From: Microbotryum violaceum
Taxonomy: Eukaryota
DNA: 64,000 nt
Assembly (NCBI GenBank): GCA_001244265.2
Contig: LN717261.1
Location: 434,001 to 498,000 of the forward strand
Reading direction: 5' to 3'
Shown: positions 4,442-62,406 of the stretch, one piece after another
Layout: every line of letters begins with the position of its first letter
How positions within the stretch are numbered: the stretch's first letter is position 1
Position numbers and translations under genes: made by a program
Notes under the pieces: generated by a model
The model's input: only the letters and a program-made list of their open reading frames with translations
Database searches by the model: none
Told to the model about the DNA's origin: nothing

Positions 4442-7400
4442 TCATTTCATCAACTCAAAAACCATTCTAAAGACGATGTTTTCTGTTACATTGTCTGCTT
4501 CTTCATTCTCTGTCTGATGAAGCAAAACTCTGACACCATCCACATTTGTTGCTCGAGACAACGCAACGTACAACTGGCCGTGAGAAAAGACGGGCGTCTC
4601 CAGACAGACTCCCACCTGCGCAAGTGACTGGCCTTGCGACTTGTTGATCGTCATAGCCATTGCGAGCTGAATCGGAAACTGCGTCCGGTGCAGAGTGAAC
4701 GGAAGCTCAGCCGACAACCCTGTCTTCAGCGTGATCCGTGGCAACAAAACGGGTTGTCCAGCATGATCTCCTGTGAGAATGATGACTTCAAGGACGCGGG
4801 TGTGTAACCGAGTTAACAACAGCCCGGTGCCGTTGCACAGCCCCGCAGCGGGGTCCAAGTTTCTGAGGAGCATAACGGGACATCCCAATTTGGATTTGGC
4901 AGCGTGCAACGCCATCCCGGGAATGTTGAGGCTCTGAAGATACTCGATTGAGAATAGTGATTCGTCTTCGTTTTCGACCGAATCCGCGCTGTAGAACGTC
5001 TGAGGTTCTCCCGGCAGCAGGTCGAGCACCATGTCGTTTATTTGATCCACCTGCGAGTTCTTGGGCGCCAGAATTGCTCAATTTTGAAAATATTCGATTT
5101 TTGCGCCAATTGACATGTTGTTCAGTTCGAAGGCGGGGACGTGATACACGTGTCTGATCAAGCCGGATCTGTTCCTCGTGGTTGCCGGCAGGAGAAGCTC
5201 ACGCGGGAGCGCGATAGAGTCTTCTGTTTTGTTTGCCGAGCCGTCTCCAACTCCCAAGAGCCAATTTGCAAAGTCGTGTGCCTTTTCCCGTTCCGTTTCG
5301 GTCATGCGGTCTGCAGCGGCCAGAAGACGCATGTTTGTCTGCGCTTGCACCGTGCCGCGGTTAGTATAGGGTCTGAAAGTCAAGGAAGGACTACTACTTA
5401 CAGAGAGATGCAGCACCTCAACTTCCCCCCCGAAGTCAGCATTCATGATGCAAGCGTCGACAATTTGTGGAGGCAGTGACTTGGGAATAATGGGAAGACA
5501 TTGCTTCGGATCCACTGTGATGTCACAGTCCAACTGGTCAGTTACTCATGCTGTGCTGTGCTGTGCTGTTGAAAGATTGGAACACACCTGCCAACACAAC
5601 GGTCAGTCCACCAAACCGAGCTGTTGACAATCGCACATCTTGCAACATCCTGTCCACCAGCTGGAAACACCGGTGCCTCGTCCCAGACGATCAAGTCGCA
5701 CATCCGAAAAAGCTCGGTGAGCTGTCCTTGTTTTGGAACATTGCATGTAGAGTCGTCAAAGATGTCGATCGGGATTTTGAACCGTGAATGTGCCGTTCTG
5801 CCTTTTGGCAGTAGCAGTGCAGCAATACCCGATGATGCAATGGCAAGAGCGTATTTTCCCTCTGAGCGAATCCGAGCGCGGATCATTTTTTCCAAGAATG
5901 TTTTGCCTGTCCCTCCCGGAGCATCCATGAAAAAGACTTTTCCACGGCTGTTCAGAATCAAGTCAAGAACTGTCTCAACAACAACGCGTTGTTCAGCGTT
6001 GCACGACTCGAAGTTGTTCCTCCAGAGACCCTCCAATTCGTCGAGTTCTGCTGCTGTGGCTGATTTCTCCATGATGAGACGATTTGTTGAAGCTTTGTCA
6101 TCAAACTGAATCGTTGGCAGCGGCAGGCCGTGGTCTGACAATGAGGAGTCGAGTCGTTGCAGAATGTTGCTGAGCTGTAGCAGGCCCCAGCTGGCTACAT
6201 GCTCGGGTGTGATGATCGGCTGCCGTCTTTGGTTTCGCAGTTGGTATTCAACGTCTTGGGTGAGGTTGTCATAGTGCTTTGCCCATAACTGCGCCGCGTT
6301 TGTGACTCCATCATTGGCCATTAACAGCATGGCAAACAGGTGTCGCAGCTCGTGGCCAGCACGGAAGACCACTGCCTCGGTCAGACATCTGTCGGCTTCA
6401 GCGTCGTTGCGTAGGAGCCCCCGTTTGACACAGGCTTCCCGGAATGTTCGAAACTCAACATCATTGAAAGTCTTCAGATCCGCAAACGATGTCGGAGAAG
6501 GCACCTTGAGAAGAAGTAGCTGCAAGTAGTATTGCTCTCCGCCTTCAGGACCACAAAAGTAGATTCTTCCAATTGTCCGGTTGTCAACTTTTCATGGAAC
6601 CCAAACACGATCTTTGTTGTTCCATGTGAATTGGGTTGGTACGTTGATGTAAAGCAAATCTTGTGCATTGTGATTGGGCAGCATCTTGGTGCACAATTTG
6701 ATGAAGGCGGTTAACATTGTTTCCGGTGGCGCTGATAAATCCAGTGCTCCATGATCTGGGTCGAACCAAACTTGGTGCTCATTCGGCAGGTGCTGCGCAA
6801 GTCTGGCCACTGCGGGATTCCGATCGTGCATCCCGAATCGAAATATCCGGTGAATGGCTTCGGGGGCGCAAACATATCGAGCGTCAAGGAAGTTGTTGAT
6901 TTCGTCTTGAGCTTCGGGTTCGTCGATCGTGAATGAAGTACGGTCGTGGCCCTTGTAAACGTACTTGTACAGGTACTTGATTGCCAACGCCGCTTGCGAT
7001 TTCTACGTTGACATGACAGTTGTACTTGGACGCAAGGAGCGGATTTGTTGGAACAACGTTTGCATCCGTATAAACTTCTTCTTGCGCTGTGCCCGGGAAT
7101 TTGACATACTGGTGTATGCCGCAACGCCGGTAGTGTGGATAGCCACCATCTTCGCTGGTCGTGCGCGGTTGGAGTTGTTTGGGAAACCGTTTGGTACATT
7201 TTCCATGGTTGTCATGGCAGGTATGCTTGCCGGGACGATCACATCGCCGGTGTAGCATGGAGTTTGTGATGGTCTCAAACAATGCGGGAAATTTGTCGCG
7301 GTCCGGTATTTCTGCGGTGACTATCTTGTCGTAGTCGTCGTTTGTTTTTGGTTTGTCTTCAGGGTCCATGATCAAAAGGATATGGGCGTGAGGCAGTCCG

Positions 7401-9981
7401 CGATTTTGAAATTCAACAACATAGACATATGCAATGACCTGTGCAAAGAATTGAGACTCGTGAGCATTCTATTCATTTTATATTTTAAGGATTCACCGCG
7501 CCGATGACATACCTTTCCAAAGACTCCCGGCGCACGACCAACGCCTAATACATCTGCAAGAAGTGCTTTCAACTTTCCGTGAAAGACCCGTGTTACTATG
7601 TCGGGACGGTCGGATGCGGTTTGGCCCGGAAGCAACGCGTTGACAATTTCCGACCAGGCAGGGTTGCATGTCATCGTGATGGATATGTCCGGAGCACCAA
7701 AAACACGAACAATGGCCATAGCATCTTGATAAAGTTGGACCATTTGGCGTGGTGATCCGGTGTGAGAGGACGGTAGAATGACTCTTTTTGCAATCTGCGC
7801 GGGATCGAGTCCTTCAGCCAGGCTTGCTTGAAGGGACGAATACTCTTCGGCTCTGAGCTTCTTCTGATTGGCTCTCATCCAATATAGCCGTTCTTGTTCA
7901 GTCATTGCCCAGGCATCCGCAACAAATTTCTGGAACAACCGTCCCCCTAGGAACAGCGTCGGGTAACTGATATTGTGAGGACAACTATGGAAATAATACG
8001 CGTTGAATTGGCTCTGTGTAATACGTTTGGATCCGGCCCTTCTGGTTTGTGGGTTGGTGTTGGCGTTATCTGTTGTGCGTTGCAATACACCGTTTTCGTC
8101 TCGCACACGCTGAGCTACCTCTGCTGCGATAGTGTTTTGGCTGAGGGGGATTCTGTTGTGGTACCAGTCTTCGCCATATGGTAACAATAGCGGGTATGTG
8201 AGTGCCATGAGTGCAGGGTGACCATCGTGAATCAGCTGACTTCTGCAACTGTCATTGTTTGGCGGGTTACGTAACCGAACGACAATCTTTCTTCTTGAAG
8301 ATTGGTACTCGGTGTCGTCTCCGGGTAGTATGACGGCCACCTCCTCTTGCGTTGGCAAGTTGTACATTCTCGGGTCTTGATTGCGCGGTGCAAGTAAGCG
8401 GAGCTGGTACATGTGAGATGCTTCACTGTCCATGAATTCTTTTGCCGTTAAGAACAGTTTGACGCATCTGTTGTGGAGTCGCAGCATGCCGTCGAGTACA
8501 GTAATGATCTGCTGATACGCCGAGTCCAGACGTCGAACCTCTTCAGGCGGTCCGTTGAATCTTCGTCGGGCTTCAATCCGTTCGGTCGGAGCCAGGAAAA
8601 GAATCTGGGCAAAGACGGGGTCGTCTGCTGGGCCTGGTGCCAGTGTGCCGATACGGTGAAGTACTGTTCCGCTAAGGTAGAAGGATGGTGGTCCGGAGCC
8701 GCTGATTATGCCATGGCCCTTGCTCGTGCCGAATGATGCCATAGCAAAGCTTTCGTGGAATGCAAGAATGCGGTCCCGAAAGATCTTCTCAACTGTTTCA
8801 CGGATAGTCAGCGAGGCTGTTAGTCCGCTGTACTCATTCTAGCAAGTTGAACGAATCGACGTGTACTAACCTGGACCATCGCCAGTCAGGAGCTTGAGCA
8901 GCTCGGGCGGGGGCTTTTCGATCCCGGGCAATCGAACTTTGCCGTCCGCGCAACAGAGTTTGAACGGTGTGGCGCCGCCTGGGGTTGGTGATTTTTCGAA
9001 CTCCCAGTGTAGAGCCGAACAGATCGGACATTGCAACGTCATTGATCCAAGATCATGCCGGGGAAAAGGCCCTTCTGGCAACGGTAACAGCGCAGTTGGG
9101 ACGGTCTGGCTCGATCGCTCTCTTGCGCGTTGGGGTCGTTGACGCTGCACCGCGGATCGTTGTTCAACGACAGTAGTGGCTGAAGTGGCAGTTGCTTCCG
9201 TATTTGAACTGGCGATGCGAGAAAGGCTTGAAACCGCTTCCATGTGTGGACGAACGAATCTCAAGCCCCGAGGTGAAGGACTGCGGGCCCGTCGCATTTG
9301 CCGGGCCACACTGGGACTGCTGGCTGCCTGTGCAGATCGACTCGACAATCCATTTTGTGCGTCGTCGTGTTGATCGATTGGTGGCAGCGTCTGTGCGATT
9401 AGAGCAGGAGTCGGGTTGTGCGGAGGGGCGCCTGCAGCCTCGCGAACGGCGCGCTCAGCTTGCTCACGTTGCCGACGTCGCTGCTGCCCCTGTGCTCTCC
9501 GCAAAGGTTGTTCATGAGGAAACGGCACGTGAAAGTTAGCAGATGACATGTCGGCAGTTGCAGCGTTTATTGGTGGCGGCGTCTGTGCGGTTAGAGCGGA
9601 GGTCGGGTTGGGCGGAGGAGCGGGAAGGCAGGGGGTCCCTGGAACGGCTTCCATGCGTGGATGAACGAATCTCAAGCCCGGAGGTGAAGGACTGCGAGCC
9701 CGTCGCACTTGCCAGGCGACATTGGGACAGCCGGCTGCCTGTGCAGATCGACTCGACAATCCATTTTGTGCGTTGTCGTGTTGATCGATTGGTGGCGGCG
9801 TCTGTGCGATTAGAGCGGGAGTCGGGTTGTGCGGAGGGGCGCCTGCAGCCTCGCGGGCGGCGCGCTCAGCTCGCTCACGTTGCCGACGCCTCTGCTGCCC
9901 CTGTGCTCTCCGTGAAGGTTGTTGTTGAAGAGACGGAAGGTGAAAGTTAGCTGACATATTGGCAGTAGCGTATATAATCAT
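4442..9981 (-). pseudogene. Helitron Rep-helicase (HUH endonuclease + PIF1-family helicase), intron-containing, frameshifted
   Basis: N-terminal CPICSALHW..CCADGKV; LPSSHTGSPRQMVQLYQDAMA..TMTCNP..DRPD; HUH motif EFQNRGLPHAHIL (~7376-7414); YLYKYVYKG; helicase DAPGGTGKT, GRTAHSRF, DEAP, QFP..AMTINKSQGQSL, FSHGQLYVALSR. Introns 8793-8870 (GTTAGT..CTGAC..CAG), 7439-7512, ~5516-5587 and ~5339-5401. Stops and frameshifts at ~6592, ~6985, ~5670 and ~5080. Confidence 0.95.
9241..9970. repeat. In-frame 411-bp-period duplication in the RepHel N-terminus
   Basis: catgtgtggacgaacgaatctcaagccc at 9241 matches catgcgtggatgaacgaatctcaagccc at 9652; the protein repeats MSANFH..RRAQGQQRRRQRE..RRARSPSP. Confidence 0.9.
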
Positions 9982-30165: not shown

Positions 30166-32377
30166 CTAGGTTCGGCGGTGCGCCACCTCACACTGAAAAT
30201 CAGCAGTTCTGTTGCACGAAACGCTATCGCTCAAGCCGTTCCCGTTGAAGACGTCTTTGCTGACCTTGAGACCTCCAAGGGATCGCAGCATTCATAGGTA
30301 GTGGATGCATTGGATGAAGTTGATCTTCCGGCAGTGGACGCAGTGCCAGTGCCATCGGTGACTGTGTGGCGGCTGGCCGTTGGCGTGCCTTAGATCTTCT
30401 GAAAGTAGACTGGTTCGTCAATGTTGATGCGGTAGACGCAGGGTTCGGAAGAACGGTGGGACTGGACCGGAACGCTCTCACTCAAGCCTTTCCCGTTGAC
30501 GACGTCTTTGCTGACCTTGAGGCCTTCGAGAGATCGCAGCGTTCACAGGCGGTGGAACCATTGGATGACAACATCCACCGGGACAGAGTGGACGTCGGGC
30601 GTTGGCTGGGGTGGAGGTGATTGATTGATAGAATCATTTGCTGCCTTTCCCTGAGTCTCCGCAATTGATATGCCCTAGATCCTCTGGAAGTAGAATGATT
30701 CGTCAATGTGGCTGTGGTAGAGGCAGGGTTTGGCAAAGAACTGTGTGGGACCGGACCGGACCGGAACGCTCTCGCTCAGGCCTTTCCCATTGACAATGTT
30801 GTTGCTGGTCTTCAGACCTCCGAGACGTCGTGCAGCTATCAGTGTGCTTGCTGTTGTCCATCTGTAGCAATGGCAATGAAGACTCGCATTTAGTTTTCCC
30901 ATGACCCGGATTCTGCACCGTACAAAGTCAAGCCGCACCTCAACTTCCCCCCAGAAGTCAGCATTCCATGAAGCAAGCGACTTGGGAATAACGGGAAGGC
31001 ATTGCTTCGGATCCCCTGTGATGGTACAGTCCTACCGGTCAGTTAGTCATGCTGCCCTGCGCTTTGCTTTCAAAAAATTGGCACATACCTGCCAACACGA
31101 CGGTCACTCCACCGAACCGAGCTGTGGAATAACAGGAAGGCATTGCTTCGGATTTCCTGTGATGTTACAGTCCAACCGGTCATTAGTCACGCTGCCCTGC
31201 GCTTTGCTTTTGAAAGATTGGCACATACCTGCCAACACGACGGTCACTCCACGGAACCGATCCGTGGAATAACGGGAAGGCATTGCTTCGGATTTCCTGT
31301 GAGGTTACAGTCCAAACGGTCATTAGTCGTGCTGCTCTGCGTTTTGCTATCGAAAGATTGGCACACACCTGCCAACGCGAGGGTCACCCCACCGAACCAA
31401 GACCTTCAGGATCTGTCACGGGATGGTGGGCAGCAATTCACACAACCAGAGCCTGTTTCTTGAGTGATTCGTTACAACTATCAGTATTCTTGCTGTTGTC
31501 CATCTGTAGCAATGGCCGTGAAGACTCACATTTGGTGTGCCAATGATCCGGATCCTCAACCGTACAAAGTCAATCCTTCCGCGCTATCACTGATGTTCAA
31601 TGTCTGTTTCTTGTATCAGTTTGTCCGTCATAGCTAAGACTGCACAGTCATGTCAAGGGATAACTCACGCATGCAGTGTCACCAGCTGACGGTGAAGAAA
31701 CAACTCGAGAGTTGACATTCAAAGAGGACGTGTTGAAGGGAATTTCTGCTTGGTAGTTTTCCATTAGCTTCTGAACAATCCCACACCAAGAGCACAGTTC
31801 ATGAAGTTACTTACTCAAATCCGTAGCTATGTTGCATGAGGCAGGCATTTCTTGGTCTCGTATTCGTTGCAGACCTTCCACGACGACTGCTTCGGATGTC
31901 GCGAGCTTGAGGTGGCGATGGGATAAGGTGTGAAGAGCAGGAGGGAGAAAGATGGAGAAGCCTGCGCCTCAGTTTAAACCGGACTCATAGAATGTTGCAG
32001 AAGGCCGCGGAACGTCGTGGAGTGAAGCCCGAAGCAGAGGGTCATGTGCCCAGCTGCTTTGATGAGAAATGGAACCTCAACGAACGTTGGAACCTCGGCA
32101 AACGTGGACGGAACGGTTTGTCGCCACGTGGTTTGTTTCCCGTTCTCTGACGTTCTTTGACGTCGACGTTGTAGACACGCAAAACAGTCTGCTTCGGGAT
32201 ACAGAGAGTCACGTGCTATTCAATGGAACCTCGGCAAACGTAGGTGAAACGGTCTGAAACAGCGCTAGCTAGCTGGGAAGCTGGACCGAGAGCTGCCTAT
32301 GACGTCACGCCACATGGTTTGTCTTTGTCTCAGGACGTTTTTTATTATGTAGTTTTAAGGATTAGAGTATAGTAGGA
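30166..32377 (-). mobile_element. Helitron unit C, 2.2-kb non-autonomous; last unit of the array
   Basis: 3' CTAG at 30166-30169 with shortened hairpin; 5' TCCTACTATACTCTAA at 32377 preceded by host A (minus). Contains three tandem ~120-bp copies of a helicase intron segment (30985-31400). Confidence 0.88.
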
Positions 32378-39957: not shown

Positions 39958-45697
<5,740 letters not shown>

Positions 45698-46234
45698 CCC
45701 CGGTGGGTAGCCTCGTAAGCTTGAAGACCTTGTGCAATTTGAATGAGCCCAACTCCTTTTCAGAAGCGGCCATCCAGTGTTTGGCCTCAGGAGAGGCTAT
45801 CGCTCCACAAAAGTCTTGGGAAGCGGGGGGTGGCGAGACGAAACCATAGCAATGAGCTCTGGTGGACGACGGTAGACTGGGCGAGTAGACACGACACGAA
45901 GGGCGCCTGTACGATGCTGAGCACGCAGGCGAGTCGGTAAAATGTTACCTGCATCAACGTTCTCGAGCGCACCAGGGTTGCGGCTGACACGGTAAGGTCG
46001 ATACTCGTAACCATCCTCAGGAGGTAATGGTTGATTGTGTTCTGCAGGGCCATCGTTGTCGTCACTGTCGATAGCCTCAACAGCTTCCTCGCGTCGATGA
46101 TCGATCGGGTCCTCTTCAACTTCAGCGTCTTTGGCCAATGGACCGACAGCCGGGAAAGGAGGAGGAGCAACGTCGTCATTGTCCATATGTTGGAAACGTG
46201 GAAGAGGAGCGGGAGCTGGCCGAAAAGCCGGACC

Positions 46235-48962: not shown

Positions 48963-49596
48963 TAGCTGCGAAGTCAAGCCGCTCGAGGGGCGAGTGGAAG
49001 CCACACGATCGATCGTCGATTGCGGCTTGGAGAACAGCCTCCGCAGCCGGGCTCATCCGCCTCGAGGCGCAAAGATGCAAATCCTTGGACCCAAGACGAC
49101 CAATCAGACGTCGACGCCAATCCATATAGTTGGCTGCCCGAAGAATTGGGACATGTAATCCACGTTCACTCGTTTCGGTAGAGTGTGTTTCGGTGTCCAT
49201 TCCGATGTTGGTGGTGCGATGTGAATCGCTTTGCTGACCCGGGCCTCCTACGCTACCCGTTGGACTCATAACCTAACGCAGAAAAGATGCGAGCGCGGAA
49301 GTAAAGCCTTCCGATAGGTGAGGGTGCACGACGCCGAGAAGTCAGGACCACAATGTAGAGCGAGTGATTATAAGTATTCCAGTAACTAACCTTCCGATAG
49401 GTGAGGGTGCACGACGCCGAGAAGTCAGGACCACAATGTAGAGCGAGTGATGAGAAAGCTATCAAGAGTAAACAGCCGCGCGGGAAGAAAGCCCCGTGCG
49501 CTCCCTAACTTAAACAGATCAAACTCCAATACCAAAGTGACTAACGACTAAACGCACGCGCATCCGCGCAGATACCACAGGCACAGACACATATCA

Positions 49597-51167
49597 AATG
49601 ACAGCAACTAGGCCCGTATCGGACTTGCCCCGCGAGATTTGTGTCGCACCGCCGTTGGCCGCTTTCCACGAATCGGCACAGGCCTTCAAGACGCGAGAGG
49701 AAGGGCGTCAGCGCGTTGAAAGGATCGCAGGGGGCGGCTCGGATCAGCGGACCTTTTCTGACTTCTTGCTGTTGCCACCATCATAGATCTCCTTCATCGA
49801 TTGAGCTCGTCTTCGCCGATGAAGAGGGCTGGTGTCGACTCCTGAGGATCGTATTTGGCTGAGGTGTCGCAAGAATGTTGGAAGTTGCCATCCAGAGCGA
49901 CAAGATGCTGCACTTCGACTCTATGGTGGGCTTGGTTTAGACGCGTCGATCCGTAGCATGCTGGACACTTATCCGAGAGAGAATCCGCGACACCGAGGAC
50001 GAGGTCACCCAATTCTCGCTCGGATGTCGTGAGAGCCCGAAATTCGTCAAGGGCGCGCTGGAGTTGCTTTCGCAACTCCTTGTCCTGCGCAAAGGATGAT
50101 AAACATCAGATAATGCTCAATAGCAATCATGACAGGAGGTCGAACTCACGAATTTATGCTGACTCAGGCCCGGCCGACCCCATCCAGTTTGGTCATAGAA
50201 ATGTCGAGCCCGCGAGCTGCTCCATCGACAGGAAACGGCGCGGTGCTCCACCAGGAGTCGAAAAATTGGAGAAGTCGAAAGGTGAATGCAGAGCGAGGAG
50301 CAGCTGTGGTCGATCAGATTAATCCTGTCTGAGCAAGGCGCTCGGCGTACGTAAGGCATGGGCTAGCGCTGCTGGATCTCGGACAAAAAGCGATCGGTAC
50401 CTTGACCACTGCATCGATTCGACCTTGTCAGCGCGTTATTCAACACAGTGAACCAACTTGCCTTATTCACATACAACTTATGAGGTCGTACACGTCAAGC
50501 AGTAATGTGAGGGGGCTCTTGCATGAACAAGGCGGCGGCACTTCGCTAGCGACCGAACCCTGGCACAGCTCCTCGTCCACGTCAATCAAGGGCCGTAGAT
50601 GACCTTTGACCCCAACGCAAAACGCGATATACTGGCGCAGAAGCGCTGGCCGTTCCAAGCGCCTAAGACGAGAGTCGCTGAACACGAACTGCTTGTACGT
50701 TTCTTGCTTCGACTGACCACGTGTGGCTGGTTCGAAACTTTCGTCTTGGCGCAGATCAGCCAGTGATAATCGCTCGGCGGTTGCACTATAGTCAGGCGCG
50801 ATTGGTATATGGGATGTTCGATCCGGAAAGTATGGGGCCGGACTAAAGTCGCGTTCATAGCCACCACCGTACTCGCTGTGGCGTTCATCATCCCAATCCA
50901 TCCCACTCGGGTTGGCGGCTTCGTCGAAATCGGCCTGAATCGGAGGGGCCATTGGAGGTTGAGGAGACGGCGAGCTAGCTTCGCCACGAGCATGTTCATT
51001 GAAGGTTCTTTGCTGAATTTGGCGCGCAGTGTACGTAACCATGTGCCGGGTTCCGGGATGTTGGTGCGGAGTTGAGGGTCCGAACGAAGGCGTTGGGGCT
51101 TATAGTCAGGATGTCCCTCGAAGTAGTCAGGTCGGAACTTGAAGCGATTCCATTTATGCCTGCCCAT
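49597..51167 (-). pseudogene. KDZ (Kyakuja/Dileera/Zisupton-type) transposase with CxC1-like domain, truncated by Copia-4
   Basis: PPPCSC; GLI*STTAAPRSAFTFRLL; LRKQLQRAL; CPACYG; LVALDGNFQH; CADSWKAA..DTGLVAVI, cut just before the expected CRH. Introns present. Confidence 0.85.
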
Positions 51168-51590
51168 TGTCTGATGCAAATTCGAGAATGTATTACTGTG
51201 TGATACAATAGTTGGTGCTCGTCTTAGAACTGAGGCAGGTCTGATTTGGCGCTGAGCGGGGGGAGGCTTGAAGAGACAGCTCTGCGGGCGACTGCACAAG
51301 TACTCCCTAATAATAGGTCAATCTCATTAGCAAGTTGCCCTAGTCCTCGGGCCGTCCAGCAACCCGGGTTACAGGGGGGGGCAACATGTATGGCTACGCC
51401 GCGCGGAAGCGAGGGTCGGAGGCGCGCTGCGTGCGCCACTTTTTAGCGTGCCTATATATATAGCCAGAGGTGACCTCTATATATATATAAAAGCACGCAC
51501 ACATAACCGCTCTACTCGCTTGTCACTTTGGGCTCACATAAGGTCGGCTTTTGGGCCCCGTCGGAGGCACTCTGGTCCCACATCGGAGGC

Positions 51591-52112
51591 TGTCATCGTG
51601 TACACTACATTGCAGGGGCGCTCTCAACTCCAGCATACGGAGATTGGGGGATGGGAACTCGGGCGCGCTCGGACCTCTTTAGATTCTGACTTAGATTACC
51701 CGAGGCAGCGACTAGCGCGGCTCTCCCTCTCTTTTCCCTTAACGTTCCCTATCCTCTTCTACTCGGCATCTTCGTTTGCTCACTGCGCTGCTCCTCATAG
51801 GTTAGTGTAATACATTTCGAACGTTCCCTATCCTCTTCTACTCGGCATCTTCGTTTGCTCACTGCGCTGCTCCACATAGGTTAGTGTAATACATTTCGAA
51901 CGTTCCCTATCCTCTTCTACTCGGCATCTTCGTTTGCTCACTGCGCTGCTCCACATAGGTTAGTGTAATACATTTCGAACGTTCCCTATCCTCTTCTGCT
52001 CGGCATCTTCGTTTGCTCACTGCGCTGCTCCTCATAGGTTAGTGTAATACATTTCGAACGTTCCCTATCCTCTTCTACTCGGCATCTTCGTTTGCTCACT
52101 GCGCTGCTCATA
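51591..52112 (+). mobile_element. Solo LTR (522 bp, TG..TA) containing a 79-bp tandem array
   Basis: TSD GAGGC at 51586-51590 and 52113-52117; removal restores the host repeat catcggaggc|gactctgg. Confidence 0.8.
51741..52112 (+). repeat. 79-bp tandem array of intron-shaped units
   Basis: GTTAGT starts at 51801, 51880, 51959 and 52038, each preceded by CATAG; branch-like GCTCAC ~17 nt before each AG. Confidence 0.95.
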
Positions 52113-52889
52113 GAGGCGACTCTGGTCCCACACCGAAGGCGACTCTGGTCCCACATCGGAGGCGACTTTGGGATCACAGATCACATCGGAGCGGACTTTG
52201 GGATCACATCGATGCGGACTTTGGGATCACATCCGAGGTCATTCTTGTACCACGTTCATGGGAACTTTGGTACCACATAGTGTAGAGGCCTGTATCTCTT
52301 GCAATATGTGATGTATCACTCTGGGGAATGTAGTATGATGTATGTACAGGTCTATAGTACTTCTGGCGGGTGAGACGAGGCGGACAATGCAGTAGTTGCT
52401 ACATCGGGGTTCTTCCCCGCTGTGCCGCTCCGCGCCCGTGTCAGCGGTTAAACCTTACGCCGATCGTCACGAGGCAGCAATTGTAGCTTGCAATAAATAT
52501 CATAGGGTGGAGCAAACGTATTTTCTTGTTGACTAGAATACTTATGCGGTAATGGCATAATCACTACATGGGTGAGCTGTAGTGTTCCTTAGGCCTGCAA
52601 TCGTTAGCACCCTTATTCGAGAAAATTCAAACATTCGGCGAAAGCCCTGGGGCCGCGCCAAAACTCGCAGGCGCTCGTCGTTTGACGGGCTACACCGGCA
52701 AACTCACGAATGCCCCTGAAAGCAGCTCCTTTCCTCAGAGCTTCACACGCTCACTGGTCTTTCCCCCCACTCTCTCTATCTTCTTACACATAAAGTCCTC
52801 ACGTAAACACTCCTCCCTATCTTAGTCGCGCGGAAATACTGTGCATCTCGAGCAAACGACGCCCAGTGAAGGGTTTACCTTCAAGGTAG

Positions 52890-57447
<4,558 letters not shown>

Positions 57448-60400
57448 GGAAGAAAAAGTGCACCACCTATAGAGGTGGCAGCAGTAGGACGATACGCAGC
57501 AGTGTCAGAACCGATAGTTGAGGAACAAGTGATTAAAGAAAAGCTAAACAAGGGAGTCCGCATTGCGAAGGCATAGGCCCACGCGCAAGAATATAATCCA
57601 CTCAGACACTAAGTTTAAACCACTGCCTTAAAACCAATCGAGCCCTGGGCGCGCTCCGCGCCTTGTTACCGATGGCCTACCACTTAGACAACACTCCCCC
57701 TGGTCGAGGTAGCGAGAGAAGCCATACCAAGTCCAGCGCAATGCTTGAGAAAGAGTGCTTTAGGCAGTGCCTTTGTGAACATGTCGGCCGTGTTGAGAGC
57801 GGTCGGACAGTATTGAAGGGTGATGTCACCGAATTCAACGTGTTCACGTACGTAGAAATGGTGCACGTTCCAGTGACGAGTGCGACCACGATGAGCGGGA
57901 TTGCGGGCGATAGCGATACAAGCTTCGTTGTCTTCATGTAGAACAGTCGACGAGGTTTGATCGATGCTCAATTCGAGAGCGAGAGAGCGAAGTCCAACTG
58001 CCTCTTTGGAAGCAGCAGACGCAGCAAGAGTTTCAGCCTCGGTTGTGGACGTAGCAACGATAGATTGCTGTTTGCATTGCGCGCATGGCAACATAGCCGC
58101 CGGTTGATTTACCGTTGTCCCAGTCGTCGGCCCAAGACGCATCAGAGTAGATCTCAAACTTGGTAGAAGCGCCAAAACGAAAGACAATACCGAGGTTGAC
58201 AGGCGTAGAGAGATAACAAAGGATACATTTGATACATTTGATAGCGATCCAGTTCGTCATGGTAGGCGCAGCGACGTGCTTAGCGACAGAACAAACAGCA
58301 TTGGCGATCTCCGGACGAGTGCGATGAGCCGCATATTGCAAAGCACCAACGGCCGATTGATAAAGTTTGACATCCGTGAAAGGTTCATTCGATTTGACGA
58401 CGTTCCGATCTTCCATTGGAGATGAGACCGGACGGTTCGAGACAGAATCGAACGCATAAGTCTCAAGGAGACCACAAACATACATACTCTGGTGTACCAT
58501 GATGTATTCGGAAGTGCAATGGAACTCTAGGCCGAGGAAAGTTTTGACAGGACCGAGTCGTTTAAGCGAGTATACCAAATTGAATGCAGATAGTTCATCA
58601 TTGAGAAACTGTTGGTCGTTCGAAGCAGCGAGTCCATTGTCGACATAAAGTGATACGAAAATGAACCGGCGACCTTTGCGTTTGAGGTAGAGACAAGCGT
58701 CCGACGTAGAGCAATGGAAGCCACGAGTCTTCATGAGGTCATTGACCACAGCATACCATTGACGAGGAGCTTGCTTTGTTCCATACATTGACTTGAGGAG
58801 TTTGAGGACTGAACCGGGCTTGTGTGCAAGCGGCCAGCCATCAGGAACCTTGATATAAACATCTTCTGTCATTGTGCCATTGAGAAAGGCTAAATCATAG
58901 TCGAACTGTTCAAGGACGAGGCCTTGGGCAGCGGCGATAGCGATGAGGAATAGGATGGTAGAAAGTGAAGCAACGGGAGCAAAGTTGTCGATGAAATTGA
59001 CACCGTACGTTTGTGAATAGCCTTGAACAATGAGACGAGCCTCGTACTTGGTGATATTTCCTTGTGCATCTTCTTTACGTGTGTAGATCCAACGAACACC
59101 ATGAGCGCGCATACCAGTTGGAAGAGTAGTGGAAGCAAAAACCTTGAGTTCGACGAATTTCGCAATCTCGGCGGCTTCGGCGGCTTTCCAGAAAGGAGCT
59201 TCGATGGAGGCCATAGCTTCTTCATGAGTACGAGGTAGTGCGAGGTTGGTGGGTGAAACACGGGCAACAAGTTCAGGAGGATTGAGATAGATGTGATTTG
59301 TATCGATGACCGAGTAAGCAGCGTGGCGACGTTGACGGCGGGAACCAGCGGGCAAGATATTATCCTCGTTGATGTTTTCTAGAGGACCCGGATTGCGACT
59401 GACATTGTAAGGACGATATTCATGGCCATCATTAGGGTAAGCAAGATTGTCAGCTTCATTATCGGACCCAGGATCAGGTGTCACTGGCCTAGAAGCATGA
59501 TCATCATCATCTCCAGCTGAGTGCTAGGAGCGAGACTAACCGGTGTTACTGGGCGAGGTGCAACAGCAGGACCAGGTACATCTGCGCGAGGTGCTTCAGG
59601 AAGGTGGACATCGTCCTCAAGTTTGATGAAGTTTTGATCAGGTCGAAGTTGAGGAACCATTTCGTACTTGTAAAGATGTTCAACGACAAAATCGCGAGGA
59701 TCAGACTGAATGTCAATGATCGGAGTAGACGAGGTCGATGGAATGTCCGAAAAAGTCACATCTCGAGTGATAATGACCTTGGGTGTGGTGTTTTGATCAA
59801 CAAGGATGAGATAGTTGTATTCACCGCTGTAGCCAAGAAAGATGCCCTTTTGTGAATGATCGCTCAACTTCTTGCAAAGTGCCCTAGGTAGTAGTGCATA
59901 GGCGGTAGAACCGAAGGTATGAAGATGCGAAACGTCGGGCTTGTGATCAGTGTAGAGTTCATACGGCGTCTTGCGCTTAGAAGGATGAAGCGAGCGGTTG
60001 AGAGCAAACGTGACCAATGCAAGAGCGTAGGACCAGTATTTTCCGGGAAGACCAGCGTACTTGAGCATTGCACAAACGAGATCAAAGAGGGTGCAATTAG
60101 CTTGTTTGGCTTGACCATTTTGTTGCGGGGTGTAACATGCGGTAGTTGTGTGTGTGATACCAAGACGATGGAACTCATCACCGAGAAGTCGATTGACAAA
60201 CTCAGTACCATTGTTGGAACGAACAAACTTGACCTTTTGACCAGTCAGGCGTTTGGTGTAGGTGATGAAAGAATTCCATGCTTTGAGTACGACGGCGGCT
60301 GTCTTGGAGACAAGCAGATATGTGAACTTTGTGTGTGAGAACTGATCGACGATAACAAGATAGATTGATCGGCTTTGGAAGTCTTCATAGTCAACAAATC

Positions 60401-62406
60401 CCAAATCCATAGAGATGCGATACAGAACGTGATCTGCCCCCCGGGATTGTTGATTATGAGGAGTTGCCGTCATTTGAGTAAGGATGCACGATTCGCAGTC
60501 AACGACAGTTGTGTCAGTCAAACGAAGGCCAGTGACCGCTCCCGCACAATGCAGGGCGAGGAGCGAAAGTTGCGAAATATGGTTGAAAAACAAGTGCCAA
60601 GAATAGAGTGAAGCGCTAGTCGATGATCGAGTGACAGCATTGACAGGTTCTTCAGGAACCACAGTGAGATTGAAGTTGTAATTGGTGTCAATTTCGGTGC
60701 TGGCAACAATGTTATTGCCAATATGCACATTGATAGTCGAACCGTCATCTCCGAACAATAGTTTAGCTCCGGCGATACGGAGTGCCTTGAAAGAGACTAG
60801 ACCTTGTTCAGCGCCGGGGAGATGATAAACCTTCTGAATGTTGAGCGTATGATTCTTGTTCGTGCAAACGGTAATGGAACCATAGCCTTTACAGAGAACC
60901 GGGGAACCATTTGCTACACGGACCATGACCGCGTCGAGAGTGAAGTTTCGCAAAAGTGAACAATCACCGACAAAGTGACGATGAGCGCCAGTATCGCCAA
61001 TCCACGTGTTCCGGAGCAGGGCGGCATCCGAAAATTCACCGATGGAGTAAATGGTATAGTTTGTTGACATTTCAGTCACCGCGTTTGCATCGACGGCCGA
61101 ACTACCAGACTTGGATTTCCATTCTGAGTGTCGTTTGTGTTGAGGGCACTTCATGTCGATGGACCAATGTCCGTTTTCTCCGCAAGCAGTACAGACGCAG
61201 TTGGGTTTGCGCTTCGGTCCTTGGTTCTTCTTCGAGCCCCCTCGCTTTCCACCATTTCCCTGACTCGCGTCCGAAATACGAGCGGTGAGAGGAGTAGGCA
61301 AAACATCCGAAAGTTTGTTGACCGGTGGAGTAGAACGAGGTAAAAACCGAGCTTGAAGTTCGAGCGAAGTCAGCTTGGACCGAGTGTAGGTGATGGTTTC
61401 CGCCGGTGGAGCGAGCGAACGACGAAGGTTGTCCAAAGTCGAAGCCCAGGCGGGATGAGTGACCGAGTCCAGCATCAGATTCGACTTGTAAAATGACATC
61501 GAAAGATTGGCCAAGCTCGTCGAGCCGAGTAAAGAGATCTTGTAAAGTAGTGAAGTGCTTCACAATCTCTTTTCCTTTTGAGAATTGGAGATTTCGAAGT
61601 TGGGCCGTCAAAAATCGAACTTGATCAGAGATCAATCCTACGTGGTTGTTGTGTAGACTCTCCACATCTCATTTGAAGTCGTGCAGGCGCGAGCGGTGAC
61701 AGTGTTGTCTGAGTCGAGGTAATTCAAGATGAGAGATTGAGCCTTGGCGTCTTGTTTAAGTAACGCCTTTTGGCGCGCGGTGAGCAGTTCAGGCGCCAAG
61801 AGCAGGTCGAAAACTGTAAGACGAGGGCCCGCACCGGGGCGAAGGCCAAGTCCCAAGGTGGAGGCTTCGGTTTTGGAAAAACCGAGGCTGACTATGCCCC
61901 ATAAGTCGTGGTTGACGAGGACGAGTTTCAAACCACGTTCCCAGGCACGGTAGTTGCCTGTTTTGAGTATCGGTACTCGGTTGACATCTGATCTCAAGTG
62001 GTAGGAGATCAGATCGGCAGGGGGTGCGTCCCCATCGCCTGTTTCGACGTAGAGCGTCGAGCTCATAACCTGAAGTAAAAAGTGCACCACCTATAGAGGT
62101 GCAGTGGCAGCAGTAGGACGATACGCAGCAGTGTCAGAACCGATAGTTGAGGAACAAGTGACTAAGTATTGCAACTAACCTATAGAGGTGGCAGCAGTAG
62201 GACGATACGCAGCAGTGTCAGAACCGATAGTTGAGGAACAAGTGATTAAAGAAAAGCTAAACAAGGGAGTCCGCATTGCGAAGGCATAGGCCCACGCGCA
62301 AGAATATAATCCACTCAGACACTAAGTTTAAACCACTGCCTTAAAACCAATCGAGCCCTGGGCGCGCGCCGCGCCTCGTTACCGATGGCCTACCACTTAG
62401 ACAACA
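57448..62406 (-). mobile_element. Ty1/Copia element (Copia-5), full length, decayed
   Basis: LTRs ~57448-57693 and 62071-62406; partial TSD TTTG(C); PBS GGTTATGAGCTC; CTACGENGHWSIDMKC; WIGDTGA; RT MYGTKQ, YVDN; PPT AGGGGGAG. Confidence 0.94.

Follow-up and report, generated by a model that had tools for sequence, protein, structure and literature searches.

Elements that are copied through RNA should lose their introns by that copying, yet mRNA levels in basidiomycetes often need introns, and introns are reported to raise mRNA levels in this group (PMC3744415, PMC4935854). The question raised by four LTR loci in the window (the whole 64,000-nucleotide stretch of DNA analysed here) is what the intron-shaped, copy-number-variable unit within them is and how it has been kept. 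The initial annotation had read it as a self-duplicating unit that is removed by splicing and restored during reverse transcription, an interpretation that is partly supported as a whole. The reading that we favor, tentatively and with a little less than even confidence, is an inherited and selected leader module containing an intron-shaped unit, the copy number of which changes by template switching and the linker of which serves as a splice donor.

Element identity and layout of the unit

The Ty1/Copia domain set, with gag and an integrase ahead of RVT_2 on one strand, was identified via Pfam in Copia-3, Copia-4 (partial), and Copia-5, which backed the Copia identity and the orientation assigned before, and the units were confirmed as sense-strand features of the R/U5 part of the LTRs. 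As in other Ty1/Copia elements, there were LTR pairs, 5-bp target duplications (with just 4 of 5 letters matching in Copia-5), and a primer binding site (PBS) adjoining the 5′ LTR. The PBS motif was exact at all three 5′ LTR ends, and an ATG within the PBS was the gag start in 4/4 elements. The four loci are the R/U5 ends of LTRs from one old Ty1/Copia clade, a trait of which is a PBS that matches the anticodon loop of the initiator tRNA and encloses the gag ATG. Fungal PBSs showing complementarity with the anticodon loop of tRNA-iMet have been reported (Kojima 2024, PMC10886601), and no tRNA genes were found in the window.

The LTRs at the four loci share the layout X–s–X, in which X is a family-specific segment of 41–80 nt with copies that are 96–100% alike, and s is an AT-rich linker of 16–22 nt that opens as AG|GTTAGT in every case and is the only conserved piece of the leader module. 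The A+T content was 69–76% in s versus 44–63% in X. One unit, comprising s and the second X, measures 62–97 nt across families, and each LTR carries 0 to 4 units, with one unit being the commonest state (5/6 unit-bearing LTRs seen). Between the second X and the PBS, 0–45 nt of U5 remain. Other tandem repeats are present nearby in the window.

In the Copia-4 5′ LTR (minus strand), X1 lies at 49391–49451 (61 nt, ending in AAG and identical to X2 at 61/61 positions), s at 49369–49390 (22 nt, 73% A+T, starting with GTTAGT and containing AATAC), and X2 at 49308–49368, so that s and X2 form an 83-nt intron-shaped unit. These are followed by a short U5 remainder at 49275–49307 and the PBS AGGTTATGAG at 49265–49274, with gag opened by the ATG at 49269. 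The S-family solo LTR (plus strand, 51591–52112, 522 bp) ends with its last X and is flanked by the 5-bp target duplication GAGGC at 51586–51590 and 52113–52117. Its copies of X start at 51741, 51820, 51899, 51978, and 52057, and its linkers at 51801, 51880, 51959, and 52038, forming an array of 4.7 × 79 bp (51741–52109) that is 98% identical. A contig from an RNA run, with a loose end at 52041, leads from X...AGGTTA of this family into PBS-like and gag-like sequence.

The Copia-3 solo LTR (minus strand, 54337–54712, 376 bp, with the target duplication TTCTG on the sense strand) contains X1 at 54479–54558, s at 54462–54478, X2 at 54382–54461 (77/80 identical to X1), and a U5 remainder at 54337–54381. 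The full-length Copia-3 element (minus strand, 41025–45698) has two zero-unit LTRs at 41025–41304 and 45419–45698, each with one X (41071–41150 and 45464–45543) and no s, with the PBS at 45410–45419 and the gag ATG at 45414. Copia-5 (minus strand) combines a one-unit 5′ LTR at 62072–62406, comprising X1 (62180–62247), s (62164–62179), X2 (62091–62163, with 1 substitution and a 5-nt insertion relative to X1), and a U5 remainder (62072–62090), with a zero-unit 3′ LTR at 57449–57693, the single X of which (57467–57534) is of the X1 type. Its PBS, again AGGTTATGAG, occupies 62062–62071, and gag is opened by the ATG at 62066. This unequal LTR pair needs an extra event under any model. On re-measurement, the coordinates given for the units at the four loci and their lengths of 83, 97, 89, and 4 × 79 bp were correct.

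The pattern GTTAGT-N(0–10)-AATAC had 7 matches at the four loci versus 0.06 expected, a number reached in 0/100 shuffles, and every match lay exactly at a joint between direct-repeat copies, the sole sites of this pattern in the window. The sequence AGGTTAGT matched 8 times versus 0.72 expected, 7 times at joints and once at 8865–8872. The AG|GTTAGT joint proved common to all families, as had been proposed. The linkers were alike in 8/10 family pairs (≤3/300 shuffles reached the score), whereas X was alike in only one or two of the ten. The claim that the X segments are unrelated thus stood in 8/10 pairs and failed for Copia-4 and Copia-5, which are detectably related (score reached by 1/300 shuffles), and weakly for Copia-5 and S (14/300 shuffles). 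The families could not be upheld as four independent cases, for they have in common the PBS, the ATG within it, and a TAGCTTT/CT-rich tract ahead of X. Since they are not independent, the shared linker can be inherited.

The start of X lies directly after the CT-rich tract, with a TATA-like box upstream (~55 nt in Copia-5, and 38 nt in a distant relative, L002), and remains a plausible transcription start, as the initial annotation had it. Judged by these signals, X probably corresponds to the transcribed repeat R or to the 5′ portion of it. ATG is scarce in the leader, with 1 in 513 unique nt versus 6.4 expected, and, 25–45 nt ahead of X, Copia-5 has two ATGs and Copia-3 one.

Inheritance of the module and origin of the linker

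The metagenome scan for relatives returned only L001 and L002, and the scans of genome contigs and viral contigs by Pol alignment yielded no further ones. The contig L002, the Pol of which has 46% identity (tblastn best segment) or 48–49% identity (alignment) to that of the window, also has the layout X–AG|GTTAGT–X. Its X is unrelated to those of the window, its two copies are identical (41/41), and 11 nt of U5 separate the second from the PBS, with the coding region forming one ORF of 1,447 aa. The only ATG in its leader, at position 1371, lies at the joint between s and X2 out of frame and would be removed by splicing. The linker starts with AG|GTTAGT and lacks AATAC, so that the sharing of GTTAGT..AATAC, which had been claimed for the four families, holds at the four window loci and not in this relative. 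A sixth linker variant, with only its donor part visible, was found in a Copia-3-like LTR in DNA run X1.

Randomly varying duplication breakpoints had been named as a sign of ordinary slippage; instead, the layout of L002 was conserved. Because this layout recurs at 46–49% Pol identity, the module is inherited and conserved, reaching beyond the source genome, probably that of a Microbotryum, and is not the product of four slippage events. A description of the module was not found in the literature searched, and the supplementary TE libraries of the Microbotryum papers may include these LTRs.

Variants were also seen at the loci themselves. A zero-unit Copia-4 LTR is present in run X3 (loose end at 49368), and the Copia-3 solo LTR is missing in the DNA contigs of runs X1 and X3, where 54330 is joined to 54712 with no gap. 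At the Copia-5 site, contigs of runs X3 and X17 join 57453 and 62407 with 611 letters between them, which is not a clean empty site. The sister LTRs had been taken as the exactly spliced form. They do carry a single X without s, but this is not diagnostic, because the identical sequence would also result from a deletion between X copies, whether through template switching or through recombination.

Several sources of s were considered and rejected. The linker is not a plain duplication joint, since it is absent from the unduplicated form; such a joint fitted 0/5 families, and the linker was unlike U5 start plus U3 end in 5/5. For a copy of another part of the same element, no second copy was present in 4/5 families; the S-family linker resembled LTR positions 8–21 (6/1,000 shuffles), a weak result given the multiple tests. 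A degenerate PBS joined to the start of gag was matched in 0/4 families beyond the common GGTTA. An intron born by plain tandem duplication (the AGGT model) was rejected as the linker is missing in zero-unit LTRs, and an introner-like element was rejected as the body of each unit is copied from the leader beside it and is specific to its family, with X unrelated in 8/10 pairs.

Splicing and rival explanations

The unit has the shape of a 62–97-nt 5′-UTR intron, since s opens with a near-consensus donor and the second X ends in AG just before the start codon. Donor and ends were close to the intron consensus (AG|GTTAGT ... (A/T)AG) in 5/5 fully read families, and the length was within the host intron range, bracketing the 65–84 nt of four RNA-supported introns nearby (run X18). 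The AG at the end of X2 does not count as independent evidence, X2 being a copy of X1, the last two letters of which belong to the donor consensus. The donor consensus is GTRAGT, in which T at +3 is unusual. This T is invariant in the linker, although the donors of the four real introns nearby are loose (GTCCGC, GTGAGT, GTGATC, and GTGAGA), which suggests a further or different constraint on it. Read as its complement on the antisense strand, the start of the linker is a branch-like ACTAAC followed by YAG.

The branch-like motif that had been described in X did not exceed chance, and the same held for AG depletion. The motif YTNAY occurs in 5/5 units and is also frequent by chance, internal AG depletion in X was not significant (P 0.10–0.99), and in Copia-3 and L002 AGs intervene downstream of the candidate branch sites and before the end of the unit, so that the AG-free tails measure just 19 and 7 nt. 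Run X18, which is RNA-like with GT..AG joints in neighboring genes, had none of the 15 joints listed of 54 at a unit and is uninformative on unit splicing and expression. The X+s sequences and the L002 leader folded no better than shuffles (z −0.92 to +1.33; 6/6 not significant), and Rfam gave no family match at the units, with 2 weak snoRNA-like chance matches elsewhere.

In the reading that we favor, the conservation observed would reflect selection, for s cannot be recovered from the zero-unit state, and still the module persisted while X turned over completely. The unit number would change between 0 and 4 through template switching by reverse transcriptase from one X copy to another, or through out-of-register annealing of the minus-strand strong-stop DNA among these copies; the behavior of reverse transcriptase on direct repeats is the basis for this step. 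Repeated gain and loss of units would in turn keep the X copies alike, and zero-unit LTRs would be loss products. With s as the splice donor, the unit would be removed from part of the transcripts, giving an intron-dependent expression benefit, while unspliced RNA would pass the module on.

That ordinary tandem duplications arose independently by replication slippage in four LTRs and share letters by chance is very improbable. LTRs do commonly hold tandem repeats, and others lie near in the window, but a chance origin is contradicted by the joint motif (7 found versus 0.06 expected), by identical borders and an identical linker start in 6 linker variants, including the relative at 46–49% Pol identity, and by the linker being absent from the unduplicated form, with no family of five fitting a duplication joint. 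A rival that deserves more weight, although we consider it unlikely, treats s as an RNA 3′-end or U1-binding signal and not as a used donor: it would be either the poly(A) signal or site at the end of R in the 3′ LTR, or a site at which U1 snRNP silences premature polyadenylation in the 5′ LTR, with the second X merely carried along within U5 and copy number changing via template switching likewise. This would fit the A+T richness of s relative to X, the likeness of AATACA/AATACT to known poly(A) hexamer variants, the position of s directly after the putative R, the S-family LTR, which ends with X and hence has no LTR sequence past it, and the weak branch-site and AG statistics for a true intron. 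However, the most conserved part is AG|GTTAGT, not an A-rich hexamer, AATAC is lacking in L002, and s is entirely missing from zero-unit elements, even though one of these is a full-length Copia-3. This rival also offers no reason for the second X to be held identical to the first.

The regeneration cycle of the initial annotation appears improbable to us. In it, transcription would begin at X and polyadenylation would take place where s ends; the unit would be spliced out of the 5′ end and then rebuilt by a non-homologous, end-to-end minus-strand transfer onto the 3′ end of the RNA. The second X would be freshly copied from the first in each cycle, failed splicing would lead to arrays, and homologous transfer to zero units. 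One step would thereby explain the identity of X within families despite its turnover between them, as well as the placement of the duplicated segment from the putative start site onward. A pyrimidine|purine step forms this border in 4/5 families (in Copia-5 only if one mismatch is allowed), and the Copia-5 3′ LTR has an X1-type X, which is what a precise excision of s+X2 should leave, but the same LTR would result from a crossover within the last ~12 nt of X. Moreover, neither an A-run nor any other trace of an RNA 3′ end is present at the joint between s and X2, the differences between the X copies of Copia-5 (5-nt insertion and 1 substitution) and Copia-3 (3 substitutions) need later mutation, and the first two X copies of the 4-unit S array differ where the model predicts identity after the last addition. 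Homologous transfer of unspliced RNA, which also transmits one unit, together with unit gain and loss explains the same facts with no non-homologous step, and the end-to-end step is required by no fact. Still more doubtful is a function on the antisense strand, where the linker complement, GTATT...ACTAAC followed by YAG, would provide a branch site and an acceptor for antisense transcripts coming from gag, and arrays of at least 2 units would hold a complete antisense intron. Both linker blocks conserved in Microbotryum (GTTAGT and AATAC) look like canonical intron signals on that strand, and the invariant T at +3 fits the CTAAC branch consensus better than the donor consensus. In one-unit LTRs (5/6), however, the antisense donor is 2–6 nt from the branch motif, so that an intron is impossible; GTATT is absent in L002, and the conserved AG ahead of GTTAGT has no antisense role.

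Meaning and comparison with known systems

A duplicated-leader, intron-shaped module inside the LTR, ahead of the PBS and the start codon, would be a new answer to the conflict between RNA copying and the need for introns, and could be a case from nature in which introns are born and turned over through reverse transcription. The boldest version, a self-renewing LTR intron, has little probability in our estimate. Its acceptor half would be a copy of R and its donor would sit in a short tail found only downstream of R, and because of this arrangement strand transfer could rebuild the intron after splicing. If true, the retrotransposon would keep an expression-boosting intron that retrotransposition should erase, with a new intron body in every diverging family. 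Even if s is unspliced, the module is a conserved landmark, not described before, for a clade of Copia elements, a directly testable system, and a source of LTR length polymorphism that will confuse LTR-based dating and TE annotation.

In the R region of retroviruses and LTR retrotransposons, direct repeats are gained and lost by template switching of reverse transcriptase. The module resembles these in having its repeat placed between the putative start site and the PBS, in the likeness maintained among the copies, in a unit number that varies among LTRs, and in zero-unit forms that equal clean one-period deletions. Unlike ordinary R regions, which are not known to hold such a module, it has a conserved, non-repeated linker of donor form between the copies and a layout kept at ~50% Pol identity. 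In the Rogers model, an intron is born by tandem duplication of an exon segment with AGGT, both splice sites coming from the duplicated AGGT. Here too the intron-shaped unit spans precisely one repeat period, and the unduplicated leader is recreated when it is taken out, whereas the donor is in the linker and absent from the unduplicated form (0/5 families fit). Retroviral donors occur in or near R/U5, as in HTLV-1, where the donor is in R, and in HIV-1, where the major donor suppresses the poly(A) site of the 5′ LTR. The putative donor here likewise precedes gag in the leader and may serve the choice between spliced mRNA and unspliced genomic RNA, or the control of poly(A), but the candidate acceptor is the end of the second leader copy, upstream of the PBS, and not far downstream as in retroviruses. 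The introners of fungi and algae are near-identical units inserted in many unrelated genes; they share with the present units an intron-like size and the ability to multiply, while the unit body here is family-specific and copied from the neighboring leader.

For LTR retrotransposons of maize, spliced transcripts contained in LTRs, multi-exon and non-coding with introns of 1,303 bp on average, have been described (bioRxiv 10.64898/2026.05.08.723830). The authors proposed that LTR-internal introns are important for the element and claimed the first such evidence (bioRxiv 10.64898/2026.05.08.723830). As far as the maize introns are described in that source, the direct-repeat build, the copy-number variation, and the position adjoining the PBS distinguish the module reported here from them (bioRxiv 10.64898/2026.05.08.723830).

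Leader architecture of the Copia LTRs

Nested Ty1/Copia elements on the minus strand fill 41-64 kb of the window and include LTR pairs. Pfam domains for gag, integrase, and RVT_2 were found in the order expected for Copia in Copia-3 (41025-45698, minus strand), Copia-5 (57449-62406, minus strand), and the truncated Copia-4. Since the best outside protein match was from Microbotryum silenes-dioicae (85% identity), the window probably derives from a Microbotryum species, a genus in which one report describes Copia-like elements as abundant (PMC4469406).

The motif GTTAGT-N(0-10)-AATAC had seven matches in the window, at four loci, against 0.06 expected, while AGGTTAGT had eight against 0.72 expected, seven at the LTR loci and one at 8865-8872. 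All seven LTR-locus matches sit exactly between two direct-repeat copies (X1 and X2) of a family-specific segment X, and the sense-strand order is CT-rich tract, X1, linker s, X2, short U5 remainder B, and PBS. In Copia-4, X has 61 nt (X1 and X2 identical at 61/61), s 22 nt, and B 33 nt; the corresponding lengths are 68, 16, and 19 nt in Copia-5, whose X2 carries one substitution and a 5-nt insertion, and 80, 17, and 45 nt in the Copia-3 solo LTR (77/80). The plus-strand solo LTR of family S, precisely delimited to 51591-52112 by flanking GAGGC target duplications, contains 4.7 copies of an X of about 60 nt (98% identical) separated by 19-20 nt linkers, and its last X is the LTR end. Because an RNA contig of run X18 also passes from X...AGGTTA to a PBS-like, gag-like continuation (loose end at 52041), this family has no B. 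The intron-shaped unit (s plus X2) noted in four LTR families by the initial annotation was confirmed, and it extends beyond the window to L002, a metagenome contig with a Copia relative, and to a sixth linker variant.

The exact motif AGGTTATGAG directly follows the 5′ LTR in 3/3 cases (45410-45419, 49265-49274, and 62062-62071), and the corresponding site in L002 is 1425-1433. In the four elements examined, the ATG of this motif opens the gag frame (Copia-3, 45414; Copia-4, 49269; Copia-5, 62066; L002, 1429). Fungal PBSs complementary to the tRNA-iMet anticodon loop have been reported (PMC10886601), which fits a PBS that contains an ATG. This ATG is the complement of the initiator-tRNA anticodon; the gag start codon lies inside the primer-binding site in 4/4 elements, and therefore the entire 5′ UTR is LTR sequence. 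X1 begins just past the CT-rich tract, with a TATA-like box 38 nt upstream in L002 and about 55 nt upstream in Copia-5, and its border falls at a step from pyrimidine to purine in 4/5 families (in Copia-5 only with one mismatch allowed). The leader (X, s, and B) is poor in ATGs, with one in 513 unique nt where 6.4 would be expected; Copia-5 and Copia-3 do have ATGs farther up, at 25-45 nt before X. These features fit a predicted transcription start at or near X1, so that X would approximately equal R.

The host repeat of the S solo LTR (51334-52325) is deeply covered by run X18 RNA contigs; within it lie two blocks rich in TATA (51450-51495) as well as tandem repeats of 23 bp (52113-52238). 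One contig joins 51585 to 52113, possibly with extra letters, skipping 527 nt that equal the solo LTR and one target-duplication copy. Another repeat family contains a 140-bp × 3 tandem repeat (30985-31398, 90% identical) and recurs at about 5457, 10948, 11333, and 23537.

Inheritance of the module

The Pol stretches of the families are 48-51% identical by alignment; despite this distance, they have in common the PBS, its ATG, and a TAGCTTT/CT-rich tract ahead of X. The earlier impression that the X segments are unrelated held for 8/10 family pairs and failed for Copia-4/Copia-5 (detectably related) and Copia-5/S (weakly), while the shared GTTAGT joint was borne out, with linkers significantly alike in 8/10 pairs and AG|GTTAGT also present in L002. 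The intact L002 element, with a Pol stretch 46% identical in the best tblastn segment and 48-49% by alignment, ends its LTR with a TATA-like box and CT-rich tract, an X of 41 nt, AG|GTTAGT plus 15 further linker nt, a second X (41/41 identical), and 11 nt of U5 before GGTTATGAG. The sixth AG|GTTAGT...AATAC variant was found in a duplicated Copia-3-like LTR in DNA run X1. The module is therefore inherited and conserved, with X completely replaced; independent chance slippage is scarcely credible.

Positions 1-1425 of L002 recur at 4707-6131 with 100% identity, so that the contig is either an element with its internal region between two LTRs or one assembled as a circle. With an intact 1447-aa ORF, the element is probably active.

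As to the origin of s, a plain tandem-duplication remnant (U5 start plus U3 end) fits 0/5 families and a decayed PBS plus gag start 0/4 beyond the common letters GGTTA. In 4/5 families, s lacks a further copy within its own element; in S, the linker shows a weak resemblance to the start of the LTR. As these sources fail, zero-unit LTRs have no simple way of recovering s. That the module has nevertheless outlasted deep divergence speaks for selection or active regeneration.

Unit number, splicing, and rival readings

Both Copia-3 LTRs and the Copia-5 3′ LTR contain one X without s, and a zero-unit Copia-4 LTR was found in run X3. The Copia-3 solo LTR is absent from contigs of DNA runs X1 and X3, where its flanks are joined seamlessly, indicating that unit-bearing copies inserted recently. 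Contigs of runs X3 and X17 join the Copia-5 flanks (57453/62407) with 611 letters between, perhaps a multi-unit solo LTR or a different insertion. Runs X1, X3, and X17 contain a Copia-4-like LTR variant with 18 letters, resembling the end of X only, instead of the whole X–s–X (49302-49464).

Our preferred reading, held tentatively at somewhat below even chances, takes the module as a leader element conserved in this Copia clade, in which the s+X unit would be a 5′-UTR intron and template switching would set copy number. Reverse transcriptase jumps between direct repeats; minus-strand strong-stop DNA annealing out of register between X copies would yield zero, one, two, or more units, and repeated cycles would keep the copies alike. 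The initial annotation had instead proposed that RNA may start at X and be polyadenylated just after AATAC, splicing removing a unit and end-to-end transfer rebuilding it. This interpretation is partly supported. Sister LTRs do equal the spliced form, but this equality is not diagnostic, since out-of-register annealing also gives zero units. The Copia-5 3′ LTR has an X1-type X without the 5-nt insertion, as exact removal of s+X2 predicts, although a crossover within the terminal ~12 nt of X would have the same outcome. Homologous annealing needs no non-homologous step. The full regeneration cycle is improbable.

For splicing speak the invariant donor AG|GTTAGT, the terminal AG, and unit lengths of 62-97 nt, bracketing the 65-84 nt of four introns supported by run X18 transcripts in neighbouring genes (49684-49752 and 50085-50149, minus, region 49604-50656; 53879-53962 and 55111-55192, plus, region 53600-55200). 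The sole leader ATG (L002 position 1371) is out of frame inside the unit, and basidiomycete introns have been reported to raise mRNA levels (PMC3744415, PMC4935854). Against it, the acceptor AG simply arises when X1 is copied, AGs intervene in the Copia-3 and L002 units, branch-like motifs and AG depletion in X did not exceed chance, and a T that never varies at +3 is unusual for a donor when those used in neighbouring genes are so loose. Likewise, by sequence the linker-start complement resembles a strong branch site plus acceptor on the antisense strand, no structure signal was found in the leader, and no Rfam family matched the units. An unspliced linker acting as a 3′-end or U1-binding signal is a less likely alternative. 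Function of the conserved letters on the antisense strand is more doubtful than either this or the regeneration cycle.

ORFs tested in the two spliced regions had no Pfam match; the minus-strand gene adjoins the Copia-4 LTR. A candidate 77-nt intron (8793-8869, minus) between ORFs 8866..9981 and 7372..8742 starts at AG|GTTAGT, contains ACTAAC and CTGAC, ends in CAG, and holds the one AGGTTAGT of the window outside LTR joints.

The literature search found no description of an X–s–X leader module. The authors of a 2026 maize preprint regard the long introns they describe as the first evidence that LTRs can contain introns (bioRxiv 10.64898/2026.05.08.723830).
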